DNA of 64,000 nt from an uncultured Maribacter sp. (GTDB lineage: Bacteria > Bacteroidota > Bacteroidia > Flavobacteriales > Flavobacteriaceae): positions 453 to 64,452 of the forward strand of contig CAYGUY010000012.1 in assembly GCA_964353165.1 (NCBI GenBank), read 5' to 3'. A model generated the notes under the pieces. The model was given only the letters and a program-made list of their open reading frames with translations, ran no database searches and had not been told where the DNA came from. How positions within the stretch are numbered: the stretch's first letter is position 1; each line of letters opens with the position of its first letter. This document shows positions 5,226 to 17,839 of the stretch, piece after piece. The translations under genes were made by a program, and so were the position numbers.

Positions 5226-6473
5226 ATGAAAAAAGTTATTCAAACTTATATTCTTATTTCTCTACTATTTTCTTGTTCTAACGGTGACGATGCATCTTCC
5301 GCTAACGATAGTGCATCCATCATAGATGAAGAAGGTATGGATTCATCTACTACCTTTTTGCCCTGTGAGAATGGTATGGCAGGGGAATACCCTTGTGATG
5401 GATACGATTTGCTCGGCAGGATTTCTTTACAGGAATTTGATAGCGATTCAGGAAACGATATTTGGGGATGGACCGATGCCATCACCGGAAAAGAATATGC
5501 CTTGATGGGTCTTGATGATGGTACCGCTTTTATCGATATATCCGATACAGAAAGTTTAACATACTTGGGAAAATTACCCACGGCTACAACTGCTAGTCCT
5601 TGGCGGGATATTAAGGTTTATCAGGATTTCGCTTACATTGTTGCCGAGGCAAATAACCATGGGGTTCAAGTGTTTGATCTAACCAAATTGCGTAATGTAA
5701 GCAATCCGCCAGCCGTATTTTCGTCCGATTTTAGGTACGATGCCATAGGAAATGCCCACAACATTGTCATCAACGAGGAAACGGGTTTTGCCTATCCGGT
5801 AGGTACGAATCGTAATGACGAATTTAACGGAGGGGTTCATTTTTTGGATTTAGGTAATCCAGCAGTACCCATAGCAGCAGGCGGTTGGGGAGTAAATGGT
5901 TATACGCATGATGCGCAGGTCGTAAGCTATACAGGTCCGGATGCCGATTACAGCGGCGCGGAAATCTTTATAGGCGCCAATGAAAATGAGGTGGCAATTG
6001 TAGATATTTCCCAGAAAAATACCCCAGTTACCATTGCTACACTACAATATCCTTTTATTGGGTATACGCACCAGGGTTGGTTTACAGAGGATCAGCGTTA
6101 TTTTATCCTTGGCGATGAACTGGATGAGATCAACTCCGGATTTAGCTCCCGAACCTTAATATTCGACATGACAGACTTGGACAATCCCGTTTTACACGAT
6201 ACGTATTTGGGACCAACAAGCGCTATTGACCACAACGGTTATGTGGTAGGCGATGCATTTTTTCTTGCCAATTACACGGCAGGAGTCCGTGTTTTGGATA
6301 TTTCTGGAATAGCGGACAGGTCTATTTCCGAAAGTGGTTTTTTTGACACTTTTCCAGCAAACGATAACACCCAGTTTGACGGTGTTTGGAGCGTATATCC
6401 CTTTTTTGAAAGCGGCAAAATTCTCATAAGCGATATCAATCGTGGATTATTTATAGTCAAAAAATCGGAGTAA
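5226..6473 (+). CDS. Choice-of-anchor B family lipoprotein (LVIVD-like repeats)
   Basis: Lipobox LFSC; PCENGMAGEYPC, NDIWGWTD, WRDIKVY, YTHDAQ, YTHQGW, HNGYV, GVWSVYPFF motifs. Confidence 0.8.
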   Translation: MKKVIQTYILISLLFSCSNGDDASSANDSASIIDEEGMDSSTTFLPCENGMAGEYPCDGYDLLGRISLQEFDSDSGNDIWGWTDAITGKEYALMGLDDGTAFIDISDTESLTYLGKLPTATTASPWRDIKVYQDFAYIVAEANNHGVQVFDLTKLRNVSNPPAVFSSDFRYDAIGNAHNIVINEETGFAYPVGTNRNDEFNGGVHFLDLGNPAVPIAAGGWGVNGYTHDAQVVSYTGPDADYSGAEIFIGANENEVAIVDISQKNTPVTIATLQYPFIGYTHQGWFTEDQRYFILGDELDEINSGFSSRTLIFDMTDLDNPVLHDTYLGPTSAIDHNGYVVGDAFFLANYTAGVRVLDISGIADRSISESGFFDTFPANDNTQFDGVWSVYPFFESGKILISDINRGLFIVKKSE

Positions 6474-6476
6474 GCT

Positions 6477-7820
6477 ATGCGATATATTTTACTTTTTATA
6501 ATCGGATTTTTCTTTTTTTCCTGTGAAAAGGAAGATGAGTTGGGCATGCCGGATCTTGGTCAAAATACATTTTTGGGGGAAGTGGCATGGATAAAAACAT
6601 TTGGCGGTACCGGGGAGGAAACTGCACAAGCGATTATAAGCACACTAGATGGCGGTTATGCGGTACTAGGATTTACGAATAGTACAGACGGAGATATTCA
6701 AAACAAATCGATTCCCGTAAACGATTACTGGTTGTTAAAGTTTGATGCCGAAGGAAATCTTCAATGGAACAAAACCTATGGCGGTAGCAAGGATGATCGA
6801 GGGCAAAGTTTGGTACAGACCCAAGATGGTGGTTTTGCCTTGACCGGTTATGCCATGAGCGATGACGGCGATGGTTCCGTAAATAATGGATTTCATGATA
6901 ATTGGGTCATAAAGGTCGATGCCCAAGGCGAATTGCAATGGGAAAAGAGTTTTGGATTTTCTGGGCATGACCATTCGTATGACATTATAGAGACACTAGA
7001 TAGTGGTTTGTTTTTTACTGGTTTTTTAGACATTACATCGGCGAGGGCGGACGGTCTTACTGAAAAGCATGGTTCATTGACCAGACATGGGGTCGGGGAA
7101 TTTTGGGGCACTAAAATCGATGCTACCGGAGCATTACAATGGCGAGGCTACTTTGGAGGTACCAACAATGACAGGGCACATGCCGTAGTGCAATCGGATG
7201 ACGGTGGTTTTGTAATGACAGGGTTTTCTGAGAGCAATGACTTTGATATCAGCAGTACCCAAGGTAGTTATGATTTTTGGATGGTAAAGATAGATAGTAA
7301 TGGAAACCTGCTGTGGGAGCGTTCCTTCGGTGGCTCCGGAATAGAGATTTCCTATGATATCTCTAAAACCTTGGACGGTGGCTATGTCATCACGGGAAAT
7401 ACCTTTAGCACGGATGGCGATATAGCCAAAACCAACGGAGAATCCGACATTTGGTTGGTAAAGGTCGATAAAGACGGGAAAATGATTTGGGAACATACCT
7501 ACGGCGGTTCTGGATTCGACGCTGCACAAGCAGTCATTGCAAGTAAAAATGGAGGCTATTTTATAGTCGGAAATTCCAAAAGTACCAACAAGGATACGAC
7601 TGCTAATTATGGCGAAAATGATATTTGGTTGATAAAAACGGATGCTAGTGGAAACCTTGTATGGCAAAAATCGTTTGGCGGTTCGGGGTTTGATTTTGGC
7701 TTTGATGTCGTAGATCATCCGGACGGCAGTATTGTTCTGGTAGGGAAAATGGCAAGCAGCGATGTAGAAGGTGTGGTATCCAAAGGAAAATCGGATATTG
7801 TGATGATTAAAGTGAGGTAA
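6477..7820 (+). CDS. Lipoprotein with repeated W.K.(F/Y)GG(S/T)..D units (probable beta-propeller)
   Basis: Lipobox FFSC; about 7 internal repeats of the form DxW(L/V)xKxDxxGxxxWxKxFGGSxxD. Confidence 0.8.
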   Translation: MRYILLFIIGFFFFSCEKEDELGMPDLGQNTFLGEVAWIKTFGGTGEETAQAIISTLDGGYAVLGFTNSTDGDIQNKSIPVNDYWLLKFDAEGNLQWNKTYGGSKDDRGQSLVQTQDGGFALTGYAMSDDGDGSVNNGFHDNWVIKVDAQGELQWEKSFGFSGHDHSYDIIETLDSGLFFTGFLDITSARADGLTEKHGSLTRHGVGEFWGTKIDATGALQWRGYFGGTNNDRAHAVVQSDDGGFVMTGFSESNDFDISSTQGSYDFWMVKIDSNGNLLWERSFGGSGIEISYDISKTLDGGYVITGNTFSTDGDIAKTNGESDIWLVKVDKDGKMIWEHTYGGSGFDAAQAVIASKNGGYFIVGNSKSTNKDTTANYGENDIWLIKTDASGNLVWQKSFGGSGFDFGFDVVDHPDGSIVLVGKMASSDVEGVVSKGKSDIVMIKVR

Positions 7821-8367: not shown

Positions 8368-8393
8368 CTCCCTTTGGGGGATAAAAGGGGGCT
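8368..8393 (+). repeat. G/C-tract REP-like element, family 1, copy 1
   Basis: CTCCCTTTGGGGGATAAAAGGGGGCT; related copies at 9844-9867 (inverted) and 51369-51390. Confidence 0.6.
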
Positions 8394-8394
8394 T

Positions 8395-9840
8395 ATGGCA
8401 TATACGGAAGAGGAATTAAAGAAAGAGCTGGAAACAAAGGAGTATGAGTACGGGTTTTACACAGACCTAAAGTCGGAAACTTTTCCAAAGGGCTTGAACG
8501 AGGATATTGTGAGGGCTATTTCCAAAAAGAAAAACGAGCCGGAATGGATGACGGAGTGGCGCATAGATGCCTATCGTATTTGGGAGCAAATGGAAGAACC
8601 GGAATGGGCAAACGTCCGTTACGAAAAACCTGATTTCCAAGCGATCAGCTATTATTCCGCACCAAAACCCCCGGACCCGAACAAAAGCTTGGACGATGTA
8701 GACCCAGAACTGTTGGAGATGTACCGTAAGCTGGGTATATCCGTAGATGAGCAAAAAAAATTGCAGAACGTGGCGGTAGATATCGTAGTAGATTCTGTTT
8801 CTGTAGCCACTACATTTCAGAAAACACTCGCAGAAAAGGGAATTATTTTTATGCCTATCTCAGAAGCGATTCAAAAACACCCGGATTTGGTTCAAAAATA
8901 TATGGGTACGGTAATCCCTAAAAAGGACAACTTCTACGCAGCATTGAATTCCGCTGTTTTTACAGATGGTTCTTTTTGTTACATCCCAAAGGGAGTCCGT
9001 TGCCCAATGGAGCTTTCTACGTATTTTAGAATTAACGAGGGAGGTACGGGACAGTTTGAGCGTACCTTGGTTATAGCTGACGAGAGTAGCTACGTAAGTT
9101 ATTTAGAGGGTTGTACGGCGCCATCACGAGATGAAAATCAATTGCATGCCGCTGTTGTAGAGCTTATAGCCTTGGACGACGCTGAAATCAAATACTCGAC
9201 TGTACAGAACTGGTATCCTGGAAATAAGGAAGGTAAAGGCGGAGTTTACAATTTTGTTACGAAAAGAGGACTTTGTGAAAATCGTTCCAAAATCTCATGG
9301 ACTCAAGTAGAAACAGGTTCAGCAGTTACTTGGAAATATCCTTCTTGTGTGCTAAAAGGTGATAATTCCATTGGAGAGTTCTATTCGATTGCCGTAACCA
9401 ATAACTATCAGCAAGCGGATACGGGTACCAAAATGATTCACTTAGGAAAAAACACCAGGAGTACGATCATATCCAAGGGAATATCAGCCGGAAAATCACA
9501 AAACAGCTACAGGGGATTGGTGCACATCAGTTCCAGGGCAGAGAACGCTAGAAACTTTTCGCAATGTGATTCTTTATTAATGGGCAACGAATGCGGGGCA
9601 CATACATTTCCATATATCGAAGCAAAAAACAAAACGGCGCAGGTAGAACACGAGGCAACTACCAGTAAAATTGGCGAGGACCAAATTTTCTACTGTAACC
9701 AAAGGGGCATAGATACCGAAAAAGCCATTGCCTTGATCGTTAACGGTTTTAGTAAGGAAGTATTGAACAAGTTACCAATGGAATTTGCAGTGGAAGCGCA
9801 AAAATTATTGGAAATAAGTCTGGAAGGATCTGTAGGGTAA
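8395..9840 (+). CDS. sufB: Fe-S cluster assembly scaffold SufB
   Basis: [17 protein letters not shown]-like segment, [49 protein letters not shown]. Start taken at ATG 8395. Confidence 0.97.
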
Positions 9841-9969: not shown

Positions 9970-10857
9970 ATGAAAAAAGTACTATACATAGGATTGATTG
10001 CAGTAATGGCTTTCTCCTGCAAAGAAGCTAAAAAGGAAAATACAGACACAGCTGTTGAACCGGTTGCCGAGGCCGTTCTAAAACCCAAGATAAAACTCTA
10101 CACCTTTAGCGGGGGCACGGTTGGGGTAAACAACCTGGAGCTTTTTTCCCAAGACACCACATATCAAGGTCAGACCAAGGAATTTGCCGATCCCTTTTAC
10201 GTGATTATGCACCCAAAAGGAAATTTGATGTGGGATGCCGGTTTGCCGGAAATGTTAGTTGGTATGCCAGAACCATTTACGCCACCACCGGGAGCTTTTT
10301 CGGTATCGCGGCAAGATTCTGTCATAAGCCAATTGAAACAAATTGGAATGACGCCAAAGGATATAGATTTTATAGCGCTCTCCCACACCCATTTTGACCA
10401 TAGTGGCCATGCCAACGTTATGCATGAGTCCACCTGGTTGGTTCAAGAGGCGGAATATGGCATGATAACCAGCGATGAAATTAAAAATGGTGAAAATGCG
10501 GGTTTGTACGAAGCCATCAAAGAGCTTAAAAATGTAAAGCAGTTAAATGGGGATTACGATGTGTTCGGTGATGGAACGGTAATTATCAAATCCATGCCCG
10601 GACATACACCCGGACACCAAGTATTGTACTTGGACCTTGCCGATCACGGACCGCTTTTGCTTACGGGAGATTTGTATCATTTGTATGAAAACAGGGAATA
10701 CAAAAGAGTTCCTAGTTTTAATTATGACGTAGCCCAGACTCTAACCAGTATGGATGCTTTTGAAGCTTTTGCCAAAGAGAAAAATGCAAAAGTGTATTTA
10801 CAACATCAAAAAGAAGATTTTAACAAAATGCCTAAGGCACCTGAATATTTAAAGTAG
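9970..10857 (+). CDS. Metallo-beta-lactamase-fold N-acyl-homoserine lactonase family lipoprotein
   Basis: HTHFDH (HxHxDH), PGHTPGH, LLTGDLYH and terminal H motifs of the AiiA/MomL-type family; lipobox FSC at residue 17. Confidence 0.8.
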   Translation: MKKVLYIGLIAVMAFSCKEAKKENTDTAVEPVAEAVLKPKIKLYTFSGGTVGVNNLELFSQDTTYQGQTKEFADPFYVIMHPKGNLMWDAGLPEMLVGMPEPFTPPPGAFSVSRQDSVISQLKQIGMTPKDIDFIALSHTHFDHSGHANVMHESTWLVQEAEYGMITSDEIKNGENAGLYEAIKELKNVKQLNGDYDVFGDGTVIIKSMPGHTPGHQVLYLDLADHGPLLLTGDLYHLYENREYKRVPSFNYDVAQTLTSMDAFEAFAKEKNAKVYLQHQKEDFNKMPKAPEYLK

Positions 10858-10863
10858 AACATC

Positions 10864-11616
10864 ATGTTGATAATTAAGGATTTACACGCACAAGTAGAGG
10901 ATAAAGAAATTTTAAAAGGGATAAACTTAAAGGTAAATGCCGGTGAGGTTCATGCTATAATGGGTCCTAACGGTTCCGGTAAAAGTACCTTGGCATCCGT
11001 AATTGCCGGGAAAGAGGAATTTGAGGTGACCAAAGGTTCGGTTAGTTTGGAGGGAGAAGACCTTGAAGACGTATCACCGGAGGAAAGAGCGCACAAAGGG
11101 GTGTTTCTTTCGTTTCAATATCCGGTTGAAATCCCTGGGGTTTCCGTAACCAACTTCATGAAAACCGCAATCAATGAGACTAGAAAAGCAAAAGGGATGG
11201 AAGATATGCCCGCTAACGAGATGTTGAAGTTGATCCGTGAGAAATCGGAATTGTTGGAAATAGACCGTAAATTTTTGTCCCGTTCCTTAAATCAAGGATT
11301 TTCGGGGGGTGAAAAGAAGCGTAATGAAATATTCCAAATGGCTATGCTAGAACCCAAAGTGGCGATTTTGGATGAAACGGATTCTGGACTGGATATTGAT
11401 GCACTTCGTATTGTTGCCAATGGGGTAAATAAACTTAAGAACAAGGACAATGCGGTAATCGTAATTACCCACTACCAAAGATTGTTGGATTATATCGTAC
11501 CCGATTTTGTACACGTTATCCACAACGGAAAAATCGTAAAATCCGGCACCAAGGAATTGGCTTTGGAACTGGAAGAAAAAGGATACGATTGGTTGAAGGA
11601 AGAAGCTACTGTTTAG
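10864..11616 (+). CDS. sufC: Fe-S cluster assembly ATPase SufC
   Basis: Walker A GPNGSGKST, FSGGEKKRNE signature, ILDETDSGLDIDAL, ITHYQRLL. Confidence 0.97.
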   Translation: MLIIKDLHAQVEDKEILKGINLKVNAGEVHAIMGPNGSGKSTLASVIAGKEEFEVTKGSVSLEGEDLEDVSPEERAHKGVFLSFQYPVEIPGVSVTNFMKTAINETRKAKGMEDMPANEMLKLIREKSELLEIDRKFLSRSLNQGFSGGEKKRNEIFQMAMLEPKVAILDETDSGLDIDALRIVANGVNKLKNKDNAVIVITHYQRLLDYIVPDFVHVIHNGKIVKSGTKELALELEEKGYDWLKEEATV

Positions 11617-11780: not shown

Positions 11781-13097
11781 ATGGATTTAAAAGACAAATT
11801 AATTTCTTCCTTTATGGCATTCGAGAACAACGTGGATGTGGAGCATCCGGTTCACGATGTTCGTATGGAGGCGATAAAGAATTTTGAGCACAAAGGTTTT
11901 CCTTCCAAGAAAGAGGAGGCTTGGAAATACACTTCGTTGAATAGCTTGCAAAAGATAGATTTCAGTATTTTTCCAAAACAGCATAATACGATTGAGTATA
12001 AGGACGTAAAAAAGTATTTTATCCACGAAATAGATACATATAAAGTGGTATTTATTGATGGCGTATACAGCTCCCATCTTTCGGAAACCACACACGATGG
12101 GGTAGATATCTGTCTCATGAGTTCGGCTTTGACCAAACCCATGTACAAGCAGATTGTGGACGTGTACTTTAATAAAGTGGCATCAAAAGAAGAATCCTTG
12201 ACCACATTAAATACGGCATTTAGTAGGGAAGGTGCATATATTTATATACCTAAGAACAAAATGCCCAAGAAACCGGTGGAAATCCTTCATTTTGCAACCG
12301 GTAACGAGGCATCCTTGATGTTACAGCCTAGGAACCTTATCATTGTTGAGGAGAATGCAGAGGTTCAGATTATAGAACGCCATCAAAGCTTAACCACCAA
12401 TAATGTTCTTACCAATTCTGTAACGGAAATATTTGCCGCTGAGAACGCGATAGTAGATTACTACAAAATTCAGAACGATACCGAAAATGCATCATTGATA
12501 GACAACACCTATGTAGATCAAAAAAGCAAGAGTCACGTAAAAGTCCATACCTTTTCTTTTGGAGGAAAGTTGACACGTAATAACCTTAACTTCTATCAGA
12601 ATGGGGAGTATATGGATTCTACTATGAAGGGAGTTACGATTTTGGGCGAAAAACAACACGTAGACCACCACACCTTGGTACATCATATTCAACCCAACTG
12701 TGAGAGCCATCAAGATTACAAGGGGATTTATGGCGACAGTTCAACTGGAGTTTTCAATGGGAAAATCATCGTAGATAAGATTGCCCAGAAAACCAATGCA
12801 TTTCAAAAGAACAACAATATTTTGATCAGCGATAAGGCCACCATCAATACCAAACCCCAATTGGAGATTTTTGCCGATGACGTAAAATGTTCCCACGGGT
12901 GTACTATTGGTCAATTGGATGAAGATGCCTTGTTTTATATGCAATCGAGAGGAATTCCTAAGAAAGAGGCGCGTGCCTTGTTAATGTACGCTTTTGCGAA
13001 TAATGTTCTAGAGAGTGTTAGCATTCCCGAAGTGAAGGCAAGAATCAATAAATTGATAGCCAACAAGTTGGGTGTTAGTTTAGGGTTTGATTTATAG
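11781..13097 (+). CDS. sufD: Fe-S cluster assembly protein SufD
   Basis: EAWKYT, PNCESHQDYKGI, FNGKIIV, KPQLEIFADDVKCSHG motifs. Confidence 0.96.
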   Translation: MDLKDKLISSFMAFENNVDVEHPVHDVRMEAIKNFEHKGFPSKKEEAWKYTSLNSLQKIDFSIFPKQHNTIEYKDVKKYFIHEIDTYKVVFIDGVYSSHLSETTHDGVDICLMSSALTKPMYKQIVDVYFNKVASKEESLTTLNTAFSREGAYIYIPKNKMPKKPVEILHFATGNEASLMLQPRNLIIVEENAEVQIIERHQSLTTNNVLTNSVTEIFAAENAIVDYYKIQNDTENASLIDNTYVDQKSKSHVKVHTFSFGGKLTRNNLNFYQNGEYMDSTMKGVTILGEKQHVDHHTLVHHIQPNCESHQDYKGIYGDSSTGVFNGKIIVDKIAQKTNAFQKNNNILISDKATINTKPQLEIFADDVKCSHGCTIGQLDEDALFYMQSRGIPKKEARALLMYAFANNVLESVSIPEVKARINKLIANKLGVSLGFDL

Positions 13098-13101
13098 AGA
13101 C

Positions 13102-13764
13102 ATGATTTACAATACCACTACATATAAAAGAGCCGTTTTAGTAACGGCTCTTTTTATGTTTTTATGTCAGGCGGTAAGCGCTCAGGAAACCCGATTTGGC
13201 GTGAAAGCTGGTGCAAATTATTCTTCTATAGTAGGTGACTTAACTCAAGGTTTAAAATTTCGGTTTTCCGCTCATGGCGGTATTTTTTTGGAAATCGATT
13301 TCTCCGATAAATTCAAGCTACAACCCGAGTTATTATATTCCTCCCAAGGCTTTCAGTTTAGTACAGATTTGGCGGAAATCCAAAATGGCGGAGTGGTCGC
13401 TGACGGTAACGACCTTAGGACTAACGTGCAATTGAATTTTATTACTGTTCCTATCTTGGGAAAATTTGCTTTAAATGACAAATTCGATGTAGAATTTGGT
13501 CCGCAGTTCGGGTTTTTGCTCAACCAGGTAACTAGAATCAAGGACTTGGATCAGTCAGGCAATACAAATGCTGATAGAAGATCTTCCATTTCCGGGGAGT
13601 TTCAGTTGGATTACGGTGCGGCTGTAGGTCTTGGCGTGAAACTGATCGACAACTTATCGGTCTCCCCAAGATTTTATATCGGACTAAGAAACCGGCTCAA
13701 TGCCTTGGCAGGCGCACAAAACTACAACGCTGCCATTCAGTTGTCCATGAATTATATGTTTTAG
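13102..13764 (+). CDS. Outer-membrane beta-barrel (porin family, OmpA/PorT-like)
   Basis: Signal peptide ending SAQ; FGVKAGANYS, LQPELLYSSQG, ITVPIL, FGPQFGFLL; C-terminal Phe. Confidence 0.82.
   Translation: MIYNTTTYKRAVLVTALFMFLCQAVSAQETRFGVKAGANYSSIVGDLTQGLKFRFSAHGGIFLEIDFSDKFKLQPELLYSSQGFQFSTDLAEIQNGGVVADGNDLRTNVQLNFITVPILGKFALNDKFDVEFGPQFGFLLNQVTRIKDLDQSGNTNADRRSSISGEFQLDYGAAVGLGVKLIDNLSVSPRFYIGLRNRLNALAGAQNYNAAIQLSMNYMF
13126..13155 (+). terminator. Intrinsic terminator-like hairpin after sufD, inside the porin ORF
   Basis: AAAAGAGCCGTT-ttagt-AACGGCTCTTTTT: perfect 12-bp stem followed by T-rich sequence. Confidence 0.7.
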
Positions 13765-13865: not shown

Positions 13866-13979
13866 TTCGAATCCATACCCGATAATCTTTGCCTGATTAC
13901 CCGTAATCCTAGCAGTATAATGAAAGGTTCAAATTTATAATCAATACCAAGAAAATACCGTAGTTAAACCTACAGTAAG

Positions 13980-13987
13980 TATCTTTG
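13980..13987 (+). promoter_or_regulatory. -7 promoter box upstream of the truncated sufS copy
   Basis: TATCTTTG within GTATCTTTGTA; the same 11-mer precedes intact sufS. Confidence 0.65.
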
Positions 13988-14005
13988 TAACCCAAAGGAA
14001 TTGCT

Positions 14006-14161
14006 ATGTTTGATGTAACTAAAATAAGACAGGATTTCCCCATTTTAAAACGAGAGGTAAACGGAAAACCCTTGGTGTATCTGGATAATGCTGCTACCTC
14101 ACAAACCCCACAACAGGTCATAGATGTTATCGTGGATTATTATTCCAATTATAATCGTTAG
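14006..14161 (+). pseudogene. Truncated duplicate of the sufS 5' end (51 aa)
   Basis: [51 protein letters not shown]; 48 of the first 50 aa equal those of sufS at 15795; 14036-14127 is identical to 15825-15916. Confidence 0.93.
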
Positions 14162-14217
14162 TACAATTACCTGAGGGTCGGCTATGACTTTAATGTTTAC
14201 TTTAAGCTACATTGTCC

Positions 14218-14250
14218 ATATCATATCATAATCTATTTATGATATGATAT
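14218..14250. repeat. Perfect 14-bp inverted repeat
   Basis: ATATCATATCATAA-tctat-TTATGATATGATAT. Confidence 0.85.
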
Positions 14251-14487
14251 ATTAAGAAAAGAAAACAATGTTGGCAAAAACTTTTCTAGAGAGTCGGTCG
14301 CAATTCTAAAAAGGTAATGTTAGTGATTTACCTTTGTTATACAATAACTTTTTTTTACTTCCATTTGAAAGAAGCAACTACAAAATTGATTTTTTTGAAC
14401 AACTTTAAATTCACTCACCAAATTTTTAAAACTAACGATATGGAGCTTACCCCTTACTGCGCAGCCAACCGAAGATTCACAACGAAA

Positions 14488-15681
14488 ATGACAAAATGCT
14501 GGTTATTTCTTTTTGCTTCACTCTTTGTTTTCTTTGCAAAGGCCCAGATTTCTTATGAGAAGGGCTATTTTGTTGATAATGAAGGCAACAGAACGAATTG
14601 TTTAATTCGCAATGTCGATTGGATGAAGAATCCTTCAAGGTTCAGTTATAAGCTAACTGAAGTGACGGACGTAAAAAGCGCCGATGTAACCACAGTTAGT
14701 GAATTCGGTGTTGGTGAGGTCTTAAAATATGTTAGGGCGACCGTAATGTTAGATAGGACTAGTGATGAAATAGACAGGCTTACTTTAGTCAGAAAGCTCA
14801 ACACTAAGGAAGAAACTTTGTTTTTAAAGGCATTGATAGAGGGTGAAGCAAGTTTATACGTATATGAAGAAGCTGGAAAGCGCAATTATTTTTTTGCCAC
14901 AAATACTTCTGATATTCAACTGTTGCGCTACAAACGTTATATAAAGGAAGGTGAAAAGATAGCGGAAAATAATCAGTACAAGCAACAACTGTTAAATGCT
15001 TTGACCAAGTTCGGAGTAAGTAAAGGAGAAATAGAAAAGTTGGACTACCAACAAGAAAAACTTATGATGCTGTTTGAAAAAACTTTTGCTTCAAATAGGT
15101 CAGGCGACAAGTATTTTTCCAGTAAGGAAAGAAAAGATTTTTTTAATTTCACTCTACGACCTGGCCTTAAAAATTCTTCATTGACATTTCAAAGCCCAGG
15201 TGGCAATGGTCAAAGTACGGAATACGATGCTCAGTGGAGTATTCGATTTGGAGTAGAGTTTGAGGTTCTCATGCCTTTTAATAAAAATAAGTGGGCTATT
15301 ATAGCAGAGCCATCATACCAATATTATACAATTAAGCAATCCATAAGAGCCGATGATAGAGTTATTGGAGATGTAAATTACCGAACTATAGAAATTTCTT
15401 TAGGAGCAAGACATTATATGTTCTTAAACGCCAGTTCTAAAATTTTCATGAACGCAACTTATGTAGCTGGGTTTAGTGGAAATTCACGAATAGACTATAC
15501 AGGTGGTTTCACCTATCCTTTGTTAAATAGTAGTAACATTGCATTAGGCGCAGGGTATAAATTTAAGGACAAATATAGTGTCGAATTAAATTATGGTCTA
15601 AATCGATTTTTGACAAAGGACGTTTTTAGGGAAGCTATTTACACTAATTTTTCAGTTATTTTAGGCTATACATTGTTTTAA
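14488..15681 (+). CDS. AT-rich outer-membrane protein (N-terminal domain plus C-terminal beta-barrel)
   Basis: Signal peptide MTKCWLFLFASLFVFFAKAQ; GYFVDNEG N-terminus; alternating beta-strands; ends VILGYTLF. The ORF is open from 14317, so the start is uncertain (14440 or 14488). Confidence 0.75.
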   Translation: MTKCWLFLFASLFVFFAKAQISYEKGYFVDNEGNRTNCLIRNVDWMKNPSRFSYKLTEVTDVKSADVTTVSEFGVGEVLKYVRATVMLDRTSDEIDRLTLVRKLNTKEETLFLKALIEGEASLYVYEEAGKRNYFFATNTSDIQLLRYKRYIKEGEKIAENNQYKQQLLNALTKFGVSKGEIEKLDYQQEKLMMLFEKTFASNRSGDKYFSSKERKDFFNFTLRPGLKNSSLTFQSPGGNGQSTEYDAQWSIRFGVEFEVLMPFNKNKWAIIAEPSYQYYTIKQSIRADDRVIGDVNYRTIEISLGARHYMFLNASSKIFMNATYVAGFSGNSRIDYTGGFTYPLLNSSNIALGAGYKFKDKYSVELNYGLNRFLTKDVFREAIYTNFSVILGYTLF

Positions 15682-15768
15682 ATAATAGTTTTAGGTTTTG
15701 TTTTCCATTTCTAACTAATACCAACATCAATTCTGAGCTAATACTTCCTATTTGTAAGCCATACTCGG

Positions 15769-15776
15769 TATCTTTG
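15769..15776 (+). promoter_or_regulatory. -7 promoter box upstream of intact sufS
   Basis: TATCTTTG, 18 nt before the ATG at 15795 (same spacing as at the truncated copy). Confidence 0.65.
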
Positions 15777-15794
15777 TACAACAATATATTTGTT

Positions 15795-17009
15795 ATGTTC
15801 GACGTACAAAAAATCCGAAAAGACTTCCCCATTTTAAAACGAGAGGTAAACGGAAAACCCTTGGTGTATCTGGATAATGCTGCTACCTCACAAACCCCAC
15901 AACAGGTCATAGATGTGATTGTGGATTATTACTCCAATTACAATGCGAATATCCATAGAGGGGTGCATGCACTTTCCCAAGAGGCAACGGATAAGTATGA
16001 GCAGGCACGTCAGAAAATCCAGAAGCATTTTAATGCGAAGCATGTTTATGAGATTATCTATACCTCGGGCACTACGCACAGTATAAATATCGTGGCCAAT
16101 GGTTTTTCTTCCTTTATTAAAAAAGGAGACGAGGTCTTGGTTTCCGCCATGGAGCACCATTCCAACATTGTGCCATGGCAAATGCTTTGCAACCGCACCG
16201 GAGCAACTTTAAAGGTCATCCCTATGAACCAAGAAGGAGAATTGTTGATGGATGTGTACGATACTTTGCTTTCTAATAAAACAAAGTTGGTCTTCTGCAA
16301 CCATATTTCCAATGCTTTGGGAACCATTAACCCCGTTGCGGAAATCATTGAGAAAGCGCATAAAGTAGGTGCAGCCGTGTTGATAGATGGCGCCCAGGCC
16401 GCTCCCCATTTAATTGCAGATGTTCAAGCCTTGGATGTTGACTTTTATACCGTTTCTGCCCATAAGATATGTGGTCCTACAGGAGTAGGAATGCTCTATG
16501 GAAAAGAGGATTGGTTGAACAAACTACCGCCCTATCAAGGTGGTGGTGAAATGATTGCCGAGGTAACTTTTGAAAAGACGACCTATGCAGGCTTACCACA
16601 TAAATTCGAGGCAGGAACGCCTAACATTTGCGGCGGCATCGCTTTTGGTGCAGCTTTGGATTATATGAATACGATCGGTTTTGAGGCGATTGCTGCCTAT
16701 GAGCACGAACTATTGGAATATGCCACAGAGGAACTGTTGAAAATAGACGGACTCAAAATTTATGGTACCGCACAGCAGAAAACCTCGGTCATTTCCTTTA
16801 ATATCAAAGGAGTGCATCCTTATGATATCGGTACGATTTTGGATAAATTGGGTATTGCGGTACGCACAGGGCATCATTGTGCACAACCGATAATGGATTT
16901 CTATAAAATACCGGGTACGGTGCGCGCCAGTTTTAGTTTTTACAATACCAAGGAAGAAGTTGATGTACTAGTTTCAGGGGTGAAACGTGCCGCCGCTATG
17001 TTGGTATAA
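15795..17009 (+). CDS. sufS: Cysteine desulfurase SufS
   Basis: [30 protein letters not shown] (PLP lysine), FEAGTP, RTGHHCA (catalytic Cys). Confidence 0.97.
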   Translation: MFDVQKIRKDFPILKREVNGKPLVYLDNAATSQTPQQVIDVIVDYYSNYNANIHRGVHALSQEATDKYEQARQKIQKHFNAKHVYEIIYTSGTTHSINIVANGFSSFIKKGDEVLVSAMEHHSNIVPWQMLCNRTGATLKVIPMNQEGELLMDVYDTLLSNKTKLVFCNHISNALGTINPVAEIIEKAHKVGAAVLIDGAQAAPHLIADVQALDVDFYTVSAHKICGPTGVGMLYGKEDWLNKLPPYQGGGEMIAEVTFEKTTYAGLPHKFEAGTPNICGGIAFGAALDYMNTIGFEAIAAYEHELLEYATEELLKIDGLKIYGTAQQKTSVISFNIKGVHPYDIGTILDKLGIAVRTGHHCAQPIMDFYKIPGTVRASFSFYNTKEEVDVLVSGVKRAAAMLV

Positions 17010-17075: not shown

Positions 17076-17510
17076 ATGAAGATGAACATTAAAGAGATAC
17101 AGGAAGATATCGTAGCGGAGTTTGCCATGTTCGAGGATTGGATGCAGCGCTATGAATATATGATAGACTTGGGAAAATCCCTCCCGCTGATTGCCGAGGA
17201 ATATAAAACCGATGATAATATCATAAAAGGTTGCCAAAGCAAGGTATGGGTACATGCCGATTTAGAAGCCGATAAGTTAGTTTTTACCGCAGATAGCGAT
17301 GCGATAATTACCAAAGGAATCATAGCCATTTTAATACGCGCATTCAGCAATCAAAAACCACTGGATATTATTGAGGCAGACACCCAATTTATTGACGAAA
17401 TAGGATTAAAGGAACATTTGTCCGCAACCCGGGCCAACGGTTTGGTAAGCATGATCAAACAAATCAAGTTATATGCCGTAGCCTATCAAACACAATTAAG
17501 CAAAACATGA
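17076..17510 (+). CDS. sufE: Sulfur acceptor SufE
   Basis: RYEYMIDLGK, IKGCQSKVW, ADSDAIITKG, LSATRANGL; -7 box TACTTTTG at 17060-17067. Confidence 0.93.
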   Translation: MKMNIKEIQEDIVAEFAMFEDWMQRYEYMIDLGKSLPLIAEEYKTDDNIIKGCQSKVWVHADLEADKLVFTADSDAIITKGIIAILIRAFSNQKPLDIIEADTQFIDEIGLKEHLSATRANGLVSMIKQIKLYAVAYQTQLSKT

Positions 17511-17839
17511 GCGATATAAACACAGCAGCCGATAGCGAGGAGCTAGGAGAGAAAATAGTAAAGGTTTTAAAAACGATTTATGACCCGGAAATTCCGGTAG
17601 ATATCTACGAATTGGGACTGATATATGATGTATTGGTAAACGAGGATAATGAGGTAAAGATTCTCATGACCTTGACATCACCCAATTGCCCCGTAGCAGA
17701 AACTCTGCCCGTTGAAGTAGAGGAAAAGGTAAAATCCTTGAACGCGATCAAGGATGCAGAAGTAGAAATTACCTTTGATCCCCCTTGGACCCAGGATTTA
17801 ATGAGTGATGAGGCTAAATTGGAACTAGGAATGCTATAA
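17507..17839 (+). CDS. sufT: DUF59/SufT (PaaD-like) Fe-S assembly protein
   Basis: YDPEIPVDIYELGLIY, MTLTSPNCP, FDPPW motifs. Confidence 0.88.
   Translation: MSDINTAADSEELGEKIVKVLKTIYDPEIPVDIYELGLIYDVLVNEDNEVKILMTLTSPNCPVAETLPVEVEEKVKSLNAIKDAEVEITFDPPWTQDLMSDEAKLELGML

Follow-up and report, generated by a model that had tools for sequence, protein, structure and literature searches.

The window, a 64-kb stretch of DNA from an uncultured Maribacter sp., carries a 1.8-kb unit that was most probably added before sufS by one ordinary homologous crossover with circular DNA. The insertion is a clean natural case of a known process, and no new mechanism is implied. The preliminary description had proposed an undescribed mode of gene capture at this site, a claim that we withdraw in favor of an ordinary single crossover, for which duplications of the homology have been documented experimentally. 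Of 60 E. coli clones that looked like products of homology-facilitated illegitimate recombination (HFIR), 56 had in fact arisen by single crossover of a truncated plasmid that had closed again into a circle, with 109-950 bp of the homology duplicated (PMC3240628). All features described below lie on the forward strand.

Two copies of the sufS start

A 177-nt direct repeat (13979-14155 and 15768-15944; 88% identity, spacing 1789 nt) contains the sufS promoter and 5' end in both copies, with a gene for an outer-membrane protein (OMP2) between them. In this the insert resembles a Campbell-type insertion, in which the segment common to chromosome and incoming DNA is repeated directly on either side. 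GTATCTTTGTA is found at 13979 and 15768, at equal distance from each sufS ATG, and TATCTTTG has no further occurrence in the 64-kb window. Codons 1-10, read directly, differ between the copies at 10 of 30 nt (gene nt 6, 9, 13-15, 21, 22, 25, 27 and 30), which amounts to five synonymous codon changes plus T5Q and Q9K. The core that follows (14036-14127 and 15825-15916) is 92 nt long and shows no differences. Codons 41-50 differ at 4 sites (nt 123, 126, 138 and 147), synonymous throughout, after which copy 1 breaks at CGT TAG (14156-14161) into DNA of 31% G+C. The distribution of differences, 0 in the 92-nt core versus 14 in 58 flanking nt, is highly uneven (Fisher p = 5.7e-7). We rejected the idea that the core is a genus-wide frozen sequence such as a regulatory RNA, because relatives differ from it at 10-25 of 92 sites, chiefly in third positions. 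The two sufS starts, the core, the codon differences and the break, as well as the 14-bp repeat and the outer-membrane protein gene discussed below, are present in the sequence as the preliminary description had them.

The left part of copy 1 (13979-14035) is native. It holds the promoter -7 box TATCTTTG (13980-13987; consensus TAnnTTTG, PMC7641319), the leader and codons 1-10, and is identical to L137, a contig from another sample that lacks the unit; the closest upstream difference from L137 is at 13969. Codons 1-10 and the upstream region of copy 1 agree with the clade of the nearest species at 7-8 of the 10 diagnostic sites, and its core (14036-14127), somewhere within which the exchange occurred, is identical to L137 (92/92) and native-like at 6 of 7 clade-diagnostic sites. 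The last part of copy 1 (14128-14155, codons 41-50 of a donor sufS) is foreign, and differs from both L137 and copy 2 at 14128, 14131, 14143 and 14152, all synonymous. Together these segments form a sufS' stub of 51 codons ending in TAG (14006-14161) that matches PF00266 over residues 1-27 only and still has the native promoter in front of it; the genome search returned it as a 56-aa open frame.

Copy 2 is the mirror image of copy 1. A foreign promoter region, leader and codons 1-10 (15682-15824; -7 box at 15769-15776) now drive and start sufS, with 18 differences from L137 across -15 to +30. The first ten codons of copy 2 agree with genome G021 (L034) and contig L125 at 9 of the 10 diagnostic sites, and the two copies do come from different sufS lineages, as the preliminary description proposed. 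The core of copy 2 (15825-15916) is identical to that of copy 1. Functional sufS (15795-17009; TIGR01979, 592 bits) is therefore a chimera, foreign in nt 1-30 and native from nt 31 onward: from nt 31 to the stop it has a single difference from L137, and its body is closest to the native clade throughout.

The empty site

L137 is a conspecific Logan contig (run SRR26630443) from a separate sample in a different study. It was found through an exact-protein look-up with SufE; similar look-ups with SufS and OMP1 gave no match. L137 corresponds to the window minus 14128-15916 (1,789 nt), with 9 differences in 4,667 nt, none of them within ~150 nt of the joint, and no bases gained or lost. Its flanks are 99.8% identical to those of the window and its core is the same (92/92). 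The copies can be told apart at 14 sites: at the 10 that precede the core L137 carries the copy-1 base throughout, and at the 4 that follow it, the copy-2 base. The single sufS start of L137 is therefore like copy 1 before the core and like copy 2 after it, and both copies in the window combine a native half with a foreign half. Relative to this empty allele the repeats are reciprocal chimeras, resident-left/incoming-right and incoming-left/resident-right, with incoming halves for which we found no donor match. This is the outcome predicted by the preliminary description for a module of cargo, foreign promoter and foreign sufS 5' end that entered by an exchange inside the core. Insertion in the window is favored over excision in L137 since all of the nearest species are without OMP2.

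L137 could also be a revertant rather than the ancestor, which would alter the direction of change only and not the structure.

The unit and its flanking genes

The variable spacer is bounded on the left by the conserved sufD (11781-13097; PF01458, PF19295), which is 99.8% identical to that of L137, and on the right by sufE and sufT (17076-17839; PF02657, PF01883, TIGR02945). The SufE protein is identical in L137 and L138. Next to sufD lies OMP1 (13105-13764; PF13568, PF13505), a resident gene for a small beta-barrel outer-membrane protein. Its frame is open from a TTG at 13087, and the ATG at 13105 is the likelier start. OMP1 occupies the same position in L137 and in the nearest Maribacter species, with 77-87% amino acid identity.

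The unit begins with the junction and an AT-rich cargo leader (14156-14478; 31% G+C) that shows no similarity to the relatives' loci: neither blastn nor tblastx against all relatives' loci fetched gave a match for its origin. Within the leader are a 14-bp perfect inverted repeat (14218-14231 and 14237-14250), a hairpin fold (z = -3.4) and the cargo's own -7 box, TACCTTTG, at 14329-14336. The cargo gene, OMP2 (14479-15681), encodes a secreted two-domain outer-membrane protein of 400 aa (413 aa from an alternative start at 14440), with a signal peptide and full-length homologues at 35-49% identity. The N-terminus, MTKCWLFLFASLFVFFAKAQ, was read directly as a signal peptide, and the C-terminus is ...GYTLF. 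In the AlphaFold model (pLDDT 84.5) the C-terminal barrel resembles Ail, OmpX and OmpA; residues 222-398 gave target TM-scores of 0.57-0.66 to 3qrc, 9fzc, 1p4t and 1qj9, while the match to PF13505 was weak and under the cut-off. With its signal peptide, modelled C-terminal barrel and aromatic last residue, OMP2 fits the OmpX/Ail/OmpA-TM class of small beta-barrel outer-membrane proteins.

Proposed mechanism

The footprint is the signature of a single reciprocal crossover, either Campbell-type or by ends-in gap repair, in which the chromosome took up a 1,789-bp circle. An ancestral chromosome with the order sufD-OMP1-sufS, the state still seen in L137, would have recombined once with this circle. 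The circle would have carried ~320 nt of AT-rich leader, a gene of the OMP2 family, a foreign sufS promoter and ~150 nt of sufS 5' coding sequence, and was presumably closed by an illegitimate join of sufS codon 50/51 to a point upstream of OMP2. It would also have had to enter the cell, and the exchange, which fell between sufS nt 31 and 122, would presumably have depended on host RecA. The left repeat consists of the native promoter and codons 1-10, the core and the foreign codons 41-50, which end in the 51-codon stub, and the right repeat of the foreign promoter and codons 1-10, the core and the native rest of sufS. Because the right repeat is a chimera of this kind, sufS remains intact and promoter-driven. 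Native sequence in both cores could result from ends-in gap repair or from co-repair of a heteroduplex during the exchange; possibly the donor core was already identical. The 92-nt identical repeats should permit RecA-dependent loss of the 1,789-bp unit. This agrees with the ~1.79-kb excision suggested earlier, and loss of the unit between the repeats would yield exactly the L137 allele.

Assembly support

The order native-left, loop, native-right on one molecule is taken from the assemblies and depends on the assembler. The genome is a metagenome-type assembly of 179 contigs, with contamination put at 3%. The whole loop (14098-15854), with both foreign/native transitions, is also covered by Logan contig L124 (run ERR3534969), which has 2 SNPs and at either end stops exactly 30 nt (k-1) into the core. 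The filled arrangement might be a product of assembly, in which the true chromosome is empty and a loop from another strain, or from a circular or tandem molecule, was threaded in via the 92-nt core common to both. The type of assembly and its contamination would allow this, as would the independent k=31 assembly, which ends at the core on both sides and whose graph permits either path; moreover, the empty allele does occur in nature, in L137. We nevertheless think it unlikely. The stub-leader joint (14155/14156) and the joint of foreign promoter and core both lie within the loop contig and are real in two assemblies; therefore a truncated sufS fused to the cargo exists in some genome. A 1.8-kb circle with no replication gene is implausible as a stable molecule, the 92-nt repeat does not reach the length of normal Illumina reads and inserts and would usually be resolved correctly by assemblers, and the empty allele comes from a different study's run on another sample.

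Searches for a recombinase and for further copies

Quite unlikely as well is that the 1,789-bp unit is a non-autonomous site-specific element, with a recombinase encoded elsewhere and an attachment site within the 92-nt core, that supplies a replacement promoter and 5' end as SXT/R391 does at prfC. An identical block amid diverged gene-derived flanks does resemble the attL and attR of islands that carry the end of their target gene, the exchange point is resolved no finer than 92 nt, and the genome has six tyrosine recombinase genes elsewhere (a count that covers the tyrosine family). However, no tyrosine recombinase (PF00589) was found in the unit or on the 65.8-kb contig C12, and the larger ORFs that were scanned out to ~13 kb on both sides contained no recombinase domain. 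That scan did not exhaust the recombinase and transposase families: ORFs 5226-6473 and 6477-7820 matched no Pfam family, and the smaller ORFs were covered only in part. The earlier observation that no recombinase is nearby holds to this extent, for the tyrosine family on the contig and for the larger ORFs around the unit. An integrase in or adjoining the unit, the mark of a site-specific integrative element, was absent from the scanned ORFs, and the same attachment site was not reused in the genomes searched (69 Maribacter, 401 Flavobacteriaceae), none of which has a second truncated sufS 5' copy. Four Flavobacteriaceae genomes with two hits (G086, G441, G266 and G327) were rejected as carriers of relics, the extra hits being contig-end fragments or paralogues of 38-39% identity. 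The arrangement is therefore a one-off, the very finding that the preliminary description had named as counting against its proposal; nor is the sufS start a dedicated attachment site. The footprint is that of an ordinary single homologous crossover of circular DNA.

The junction, leader, inverted repeat and cargo have no second copy in their own genome. The sole inverted repeat of the unit is internal (14218-14250) and the unit is single-copy, unlike a transposable element or MITE. Its left end is an arbitrary break in sufS codon 50/51, unlike the end of an element. Finally, the 92-nt identity far exceeds what a recombinase core needs and equals the host allele, and gap repair or conversion fits better for this reason. 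SXT/R391 elements at the 5' end of prfC (Hochhut & Waldor 1999; PMC2791158) share with the present unit insertion into the 5' end of a housekeeping gene and near-identity of element and chromosome at the site of exchange. They are ~100 kb and self-transmissible, are defined by their tyrosine integrase and are found again and again at prfC across many hosts, whereas the unit described here is 1.8 kb with one cargo gene, no integrase and a single occurrence.

We give a similarly low probability to the idea that the unit is a recombinase-free 'homing-arm' cassette that circulates among Maribacter strains by looping out and re-entering at the sufS start. If this were true, host recombination between the 92-nt repeats would loop the unit out as a circle, each re-entry would supply a promoter and initial codons along with the cargo and thereby spare the essential gene from being silenced, and the OMP genes stacked between sufD and sufS across the genus would have accumulated through repeated cycles of this kind, each followed by loss of the stub.

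Comparison with other recombination events

HFIR was reportedly described by de Vries and Wackernagel in 2002, by Prudhomme et al. in 2002 and by Meier and Wackernagel in 2003. Applied to this locus, HFIR of a linear donor would combine a homologous right-end crossover in sufS with an illegitimate left join at native nt 153; copy 1 would be wholly native and the cores would have been made identical by later gene conversion. HFIR is the usual model for foreign DNA gained beside a conserved anchor, and has been invoked for effector-immunity arrays of the V. cholerae T6SS (PMC5361080). As in HFIR, the locus is variable and the foreign DNA lies next to a conserved anchor gene, part of the former arrangement persists as a relic, and there is one illegitimate joint (sufS codon 50/51 to AT-rich DNA). 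Copy 1 is also native-like at two clade-diagnostic sites, nt 139 and 140. However, L137, elsewhere only 0.2% different from the window, has the copy-2 and not the copy-1 base at 4 of 4 sites in nt 123-147, so the final 28 nt of copy 1 are of foreign origin. Under HFIR, resident sequence continues without interruption to the illegitimate joint, usually with a loss of resident DNA, whereas here the 28 nt ahead of the joint are foreign and nothing is deleted, which means that the illegitimate joint was formed in the donor molecule and not in the recipient chromosome. HFIR is thus a very improbable origin. There is next to no chance of a local tandem duplication of the sufS 5' region with later divergence of its ends and independent insertion of the cargo, since despite the tandem orientation of the direct repeats, 10/30 and 4/28 differences beside 0/92 are not attainable by drift, the first ten codons of copy 2 agree with another lineage at 9 of 10 sites and the nearly identical L137 flanks leave no time for divergence; the preliminary description was correct in setting a simple tandem duplication aside.

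A Campbell-type crossover fits the structure best. Campbell-type insertion-duplication, known from the integration of suicide plasmids and from the re-circularised truncated plasmids of Amarir-Bouhram et al. (2011, PMC3240628), leaves the homology duplicated around foreign DNA as seen here, over 150-177 nt in the window and 109-950 bp in that study. In both cases the repeats are reciprocal chimeras of resident and incoming DNA, removal of one repeat plus the insert restores the exact empty site, and neither an element-encoded recombinase nor a short target-site duplication is involved. The present case differs in that it arose in nature, between alleles that had diverged in separate lineages, with a circle whose presence and origin would have to be read back from its product. 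It also differs in that the incoming 5' fragment brings a promoter and start codon with it, which keeps the essential gene expressed, and in that the middle 92 nt of both repeats are resident sequence, which implies gap repair or conversion. Transformation-induced merodiploidy in S. pneumoniae (Johnston et al. 2013, PMC3784515) is reported to arise likewise by homologous recombination of the host with incoming DNA and to give a collapsible, repeat-flanked duplication; it duplicates resident segments between existing repeats and adds no foreign gene accompanied by a foreign gene start.

If the crossover is correctly read, the locus is an unusually complete natural record of a gene added inside an essential operon through host recombination and ~150 nt of homology only. 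Both the filled and the empty allele still exist, 99.8% identical to each other, the reciprocal chimerism of the two repeats is plainly visible, and the core bears the marks of repair toward the resident sequence. It may serve as a template for reading footprints in which a 5'-end duplication surrounds cargo, which are easily mistaken for new mobile elements.

Donor lineage and the sufD-sufS interval

The donor was probably another Maribacter lineage. No protein above 49% identity to OMP2 was found (one genome per GTDB species; 5.8 billion proteins), an exact 33-mer of the foreign codons 1-11 was absent from the genome contigs searched, and a 24-mer occurred in three metagenome contigs, which proved to carry sufS genes of other taxa at just 76-77% identity. 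Because the donor is absent from the collections searched, the foreign halves are unmatched to a real allele and any microhomology at the closing joint is unreadable. In the lineages that come closest to the foreign 5' end, the core departs from the native one at 15-26 of 92 sites. RecA exchange over ~150 nt of such divergence would be very inefficient, unless the donor core was much closer or already identical.

A second promoter box in M. litopenaei (L051:3381) proved to be a chance match within a coding region, with no sufS-like sequence downstream. The closest OMP2 homologues (43-49% identity) all lie between sufD and sufS, and in 5 of 6 loci (M. litopenaei, MAG HyVt-319, L125, L127 and L128) the homologue is directly upstream of sufS; L126 has a further small OMP gene downstream of it. 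Throughout the genus this interval is variable and holds 0-4 small outer-membrane protein genes of three families, a variable spot that the present locus brings to light. That the OMP2 family is tied to the sufD-sufS locus and yet only 43-49% identical between lineages suggests a fast turnover of a surface protein.

Organization of the suf operon and the duplicated sufS start

The assembly that contains the window is of the metagenome type, has 179 contigs and represents a Maribacter species. The gene order across its suf operon is sufB (8374-9840), a metallo-beta-lactamase (MBL)-fold lactonase-like gene (9970-10857), sufC (10864-11616), sufD (11781-13097), OMP1, which encodes a small beta-barrel protein (13105-13764), a truncated sufS or sufS' stub (14006-14161), OMP2 (14479-15681), sufS (15795-17009), sufE (17076-17510) and sufT (17507-17839). 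The sufS promoter and 5' end are present twice, as direct repeats of 177 nt (13979-14155 and 15768-15944) that are 88% identical and lie 1,789 nt apart. A block of 92 nt (14036-14127 and 15825-15916), referred to hereafter as the core, is identical in both. The first 30 coding nucleotides of the two copies differ at 10 positions (five synonymous codon changes plus T5Q and Q9K) and codons 41-50 differ at four, all synonymous, while copy 1 ends at CGT TAG and is followed by DNA of 31% G+C. The structural features listed in the preliminary description were all confirmed. The absence of differences in the core (0/92 nt), compared with 14/58 nt in the flanking parts of the repeats, is highly significant (Fisher p = 5.7e-7). 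The core is not frozen in the genus, since relatives differ from it at 10-25 of the 92 sites.

Both copies share GTATCTTTGTA, which includes TATCTTTG, a fit to the -7 promoter box TAnnTTTG of Flavobacterium and Bacteroides (PMC7641319). Because of this match and because the distance from the box to sufS is constant in nearly all Maribacter genomes examined, GTATCTTTGTA, with TATCTTTG, is predicted to be the resident internal promoter of sufS-sufE-sufT.

Two other features of the region were recorded. The MBL-fold gene, which is AHL-lactonase-like, lies between sufB and sufC and ends 6 nt before sufC; its best NCBIfam matches are AttM/AiiA-type lactonases, with scores far under the cut-offs. 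In two other suf operons (loci L128 and L139) sufB and sufC are adjacent, and the gene is therefore taken to be a second insertion into the operon of the window. Upstream of the operon, two adjacent ORFs (5226-6473 and 6477-7820; 415 and 447 aa) had no Pfam match at E <= 1e-5.

An empty allele and the reciprocal structure of the copies

An exact-protein look-up with SufE retrieved L137, a Logan contig of 4,667 nt from the unrelated run SRR26630443 with the gene content sufD-OMP1-sufS-sufE-sufT. When one repeat unit and the insert were removed from the window in silico, the product differed from L137 at 9 of 4,667 positions (99.81% identity), none of them within ~150 nt of the joint. To judge by this comparison, L137 represents an empty-site allele of the species in the window. 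Of the 14 positions where the copies disagree, the ten to the left of the core have the copy-1 base in L137 and the four to its right have the copy-2 base; the L137 core matches that of the window at 92/92 positions. The native allele thus joins a promoter and codons 1-10 of the copy-1 type, through the core, to codons 41-50 onward of the copy-2 type. From this base pattern the copies in the window are reciprocal chimeras: copy 1 has a native promoter and codons 1-10, the core, and foreign sequence from codons 41-50 onward, and copy 2 has a foreign promoter and codons 1-10, the core, and native sequence from codons 41-50 onward. We read this pattern as the trace of a single reciprocal exchange within the core, in which the chromosome recombined with a circularly permuted molecule of 1,789 bp. 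The structural model proposed earlier, an excisable module of cargo, promoter and sufS 5' end that exchanged in the core, was right and is now backed by the empty allele.

The filled arrangement rests on assemblies and might have been mis-threaded. An independent Logan contig, L124 (ERR3534969), corresponds to 14098-15854 with two SNPs (14308 and 14311). At each end it breaks off in the core after exactly 30 nt, because a k=31 graph must halt at the repeat. Both foreign/native transitions, as well as the joint between stub and leader, are thereby proven to be present in reads; their linkage to the native flanks on one molecule is assembly-based. We consider mis-threading very unlikely, and even if it had occurred, some genome must carry the truncated sufS joined to the cargo. 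The two SNPs, 18-21 nt upstream of the cargo's -7 box, indicate that the population includes another version of the filled allele.

Lineage of each half

The upstream region and first ten codons of copy 1 were matched by the nearest species clade (SufS 93-95% identical in amino acids) at 7-8 of 10 diagnostic sites. For the first ten codons of copy 2, a relative's genome (G021) and a contig with an OMP2 homologue (L125) matched at 9/10. Between nt 31 and the stop codon a single site separates copy 2 from L137, and the sufS body falls with the native clade. Of the clade-diagnostic sites in the core, 6/7 are native-like. The donor's own core probably differed and was replaced by resident sequence, since the lineages nearest the foreign 5' end differ at 15-26 of the 92 core sites and the core equals that of L137. 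Replacement would have taken place by gap repair of an ends-in intermediate or by co-repair of heteroduplex. Alternatively, the donor core may already have been identical, which would have channelled the exchange there.

The OMP2 cargo and its source

No close relative of OMP2 was found: identity peaked at 49% in a search of 5.8 billion proteins and at 47% in a set with one genome per species. The closest homologues (43-49% identity) all lie between sufD and sufS in Maribacter-like genomes, immediately before sufS in M. litopenaei, MAG HyVt-319 and loci L125, L127 and L128, and followed by another small OMP gene in locus L126. Family members at 35-42% identity occupy other places in other genera. 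Because homologues are found directly upstream of sufS, the order OMP2-promoter-sufS that a donor would need is a documented one. A donor fragment that began ~320 nt before OMP2, reached sufS codon 50/51 and was circularised by illegitimate joining of its ends would yield precisely this unit. None of the collections searched contained the real donor.

The predicted model of OMP2 (pLDDT 84.5) comprises a beta-rich domain at the N-terminus, which also has three helices, then a linker of poor model quality and a C-terminal barrel that resembles Ail, OmpX, NspA and the OmpA transmembrane domain (target TM-scores 0.57-0.66). SufS proteins encoded beside OMP2 homologues (loci L051, L097 and L125-L128) are 82-88% identical, compared with only 43-49% for OMP2 itself. 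On these identities OMP2 appears to be a locus-bound yet very fast-diverging surface protein, a pattern that suggests diversifying turnover. Certain database entries for the family carry the label 'PorT family protein' or, apparently wrongly, 'tRNA modification GTPase'.

A 14-bp perfect inverted repeat with a 5-nt loop (ATATCATATCATAA / TTATGATATGATAT, 14218-14250) lies 57 nt past the stub stop codon. It forms a strong predicted hairpin (z = -3.4), is unique in the genome and is not followed by a run of T; its candidate roles are those of an operator or of a terminator for the gene upstream in the donor.

The sufD-sufS spacer across Maribacter

Among 31 Maribacter loci surveyed, the spacer was empty in six, held OMP3 (a barrel protein of ~190 aa) in eight, OMP1 in two (with an OMP3 relic kept in one further locus) and OMP1 plus OMP3 in ten. 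One locus (genome G012) held OMP3 and an OMP2-like gene, and that of M. litopenaei held OMP1, OMP3, an OMP1-like and an OMP2-like gene. In the nearest clade the spacer is mostly OMP1 plus OMP3, and in the window species loss of OMP3 preceded the gain of OMP2.

The spacer is a hypervariable islet of 0-4 small outer-membrane beta-barrel genes (loci L010-L011, L022-L050 and L125-L128) from the families OMP1 (~220 aa, PF13568), OMP3 (~190 aa) and OMP2 (~400 aa). Relics are present, such as a 32-aa OMP3 remnant in L028. In the single-contig genome of M. litopenaei (CP104205, ~3,852,906-3,862,072; L051/L010), the alignments of sufS, OMP1 and an OMP1-like gene are each split over two or three frames and sufS has one in-frame TAA, a sign of either frameshift errors in sequencing or pseudogenisation within an essential operon.

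Mechanism and generality of the insertion

There was no tyrosine recombinase on the 65.8-kb contig and no recombinase domain among the larger ORFs scanned over ~13 kb on each side, two of which lacked a Pfam match (a few smaller ORFs fell outside the scan). Every part of the unit is single-copy in the genome, and its sole inverted repeat (14218-14250) is internal, not terminal. Host homologous recombination would suffice for the insertion. The same product was described in E. coli conjugation, where 56 of 60 clones that were candidates for homology-facilitated illegitimate recombination (HFIR) proved to be single crossovers of a re-circularised plasmid lacking part of the homology, with 109-950 bp of the homologous locus duplicated (PMC3240628).

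A 70-aa SufS N-terminus, read through stops, was used as the survey query. Among 69 Maribacter genomes a short-frame second match was present in the window genome only. Four others among 401 Flavobacteriaceae genomes (302 genera) had two matches, but these were rejected as stubs, two being contig-end 5' fragments and two 38-39%-identical paralogues. With no other short-frame stub in either set, the sufS stub is a one-off. A lone occurrence was among the outcomes that the preliminary description had itself listed as refuting its proposal of a general mechanism. The earlier proposal of an undescribed gene-capture mechanism is not supported: the stub does not recur, and the product is that of a known single crossover (PMC3240628). 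The sufS insertion instead adds a well-documented example from nature to a type of event that is already known. The boldest reading, that a recombinase-free cassette, shuttling by host recombination, built the OMP stack, is highly improbable. Since copy 1 closes with 28 nt of non-resident sequence, HFIR proper, the process put forward for T6SS arrays of V. cholerae (PMC5361080), is ruled out. SXT/R391 elements insert at the 5' end of prfC, likewise a housekeeping gene, but their insertion is integrase-defined and recurrent there (PMC2791158), and neither property was seen for the sufS insertion in the ORFs scanned and the genomes surveyed.

Two other Flavobacteriaceae assemblies, G086 (C4:5-121 with C48:11266-11409) and G441 (C365:3-131), break within the first ~40 codons of sufS, and the contig ends in G086 overlap by ~50 nt. 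These are probably ordinary assembly breaks, the alternative being a repeat at the same spot.
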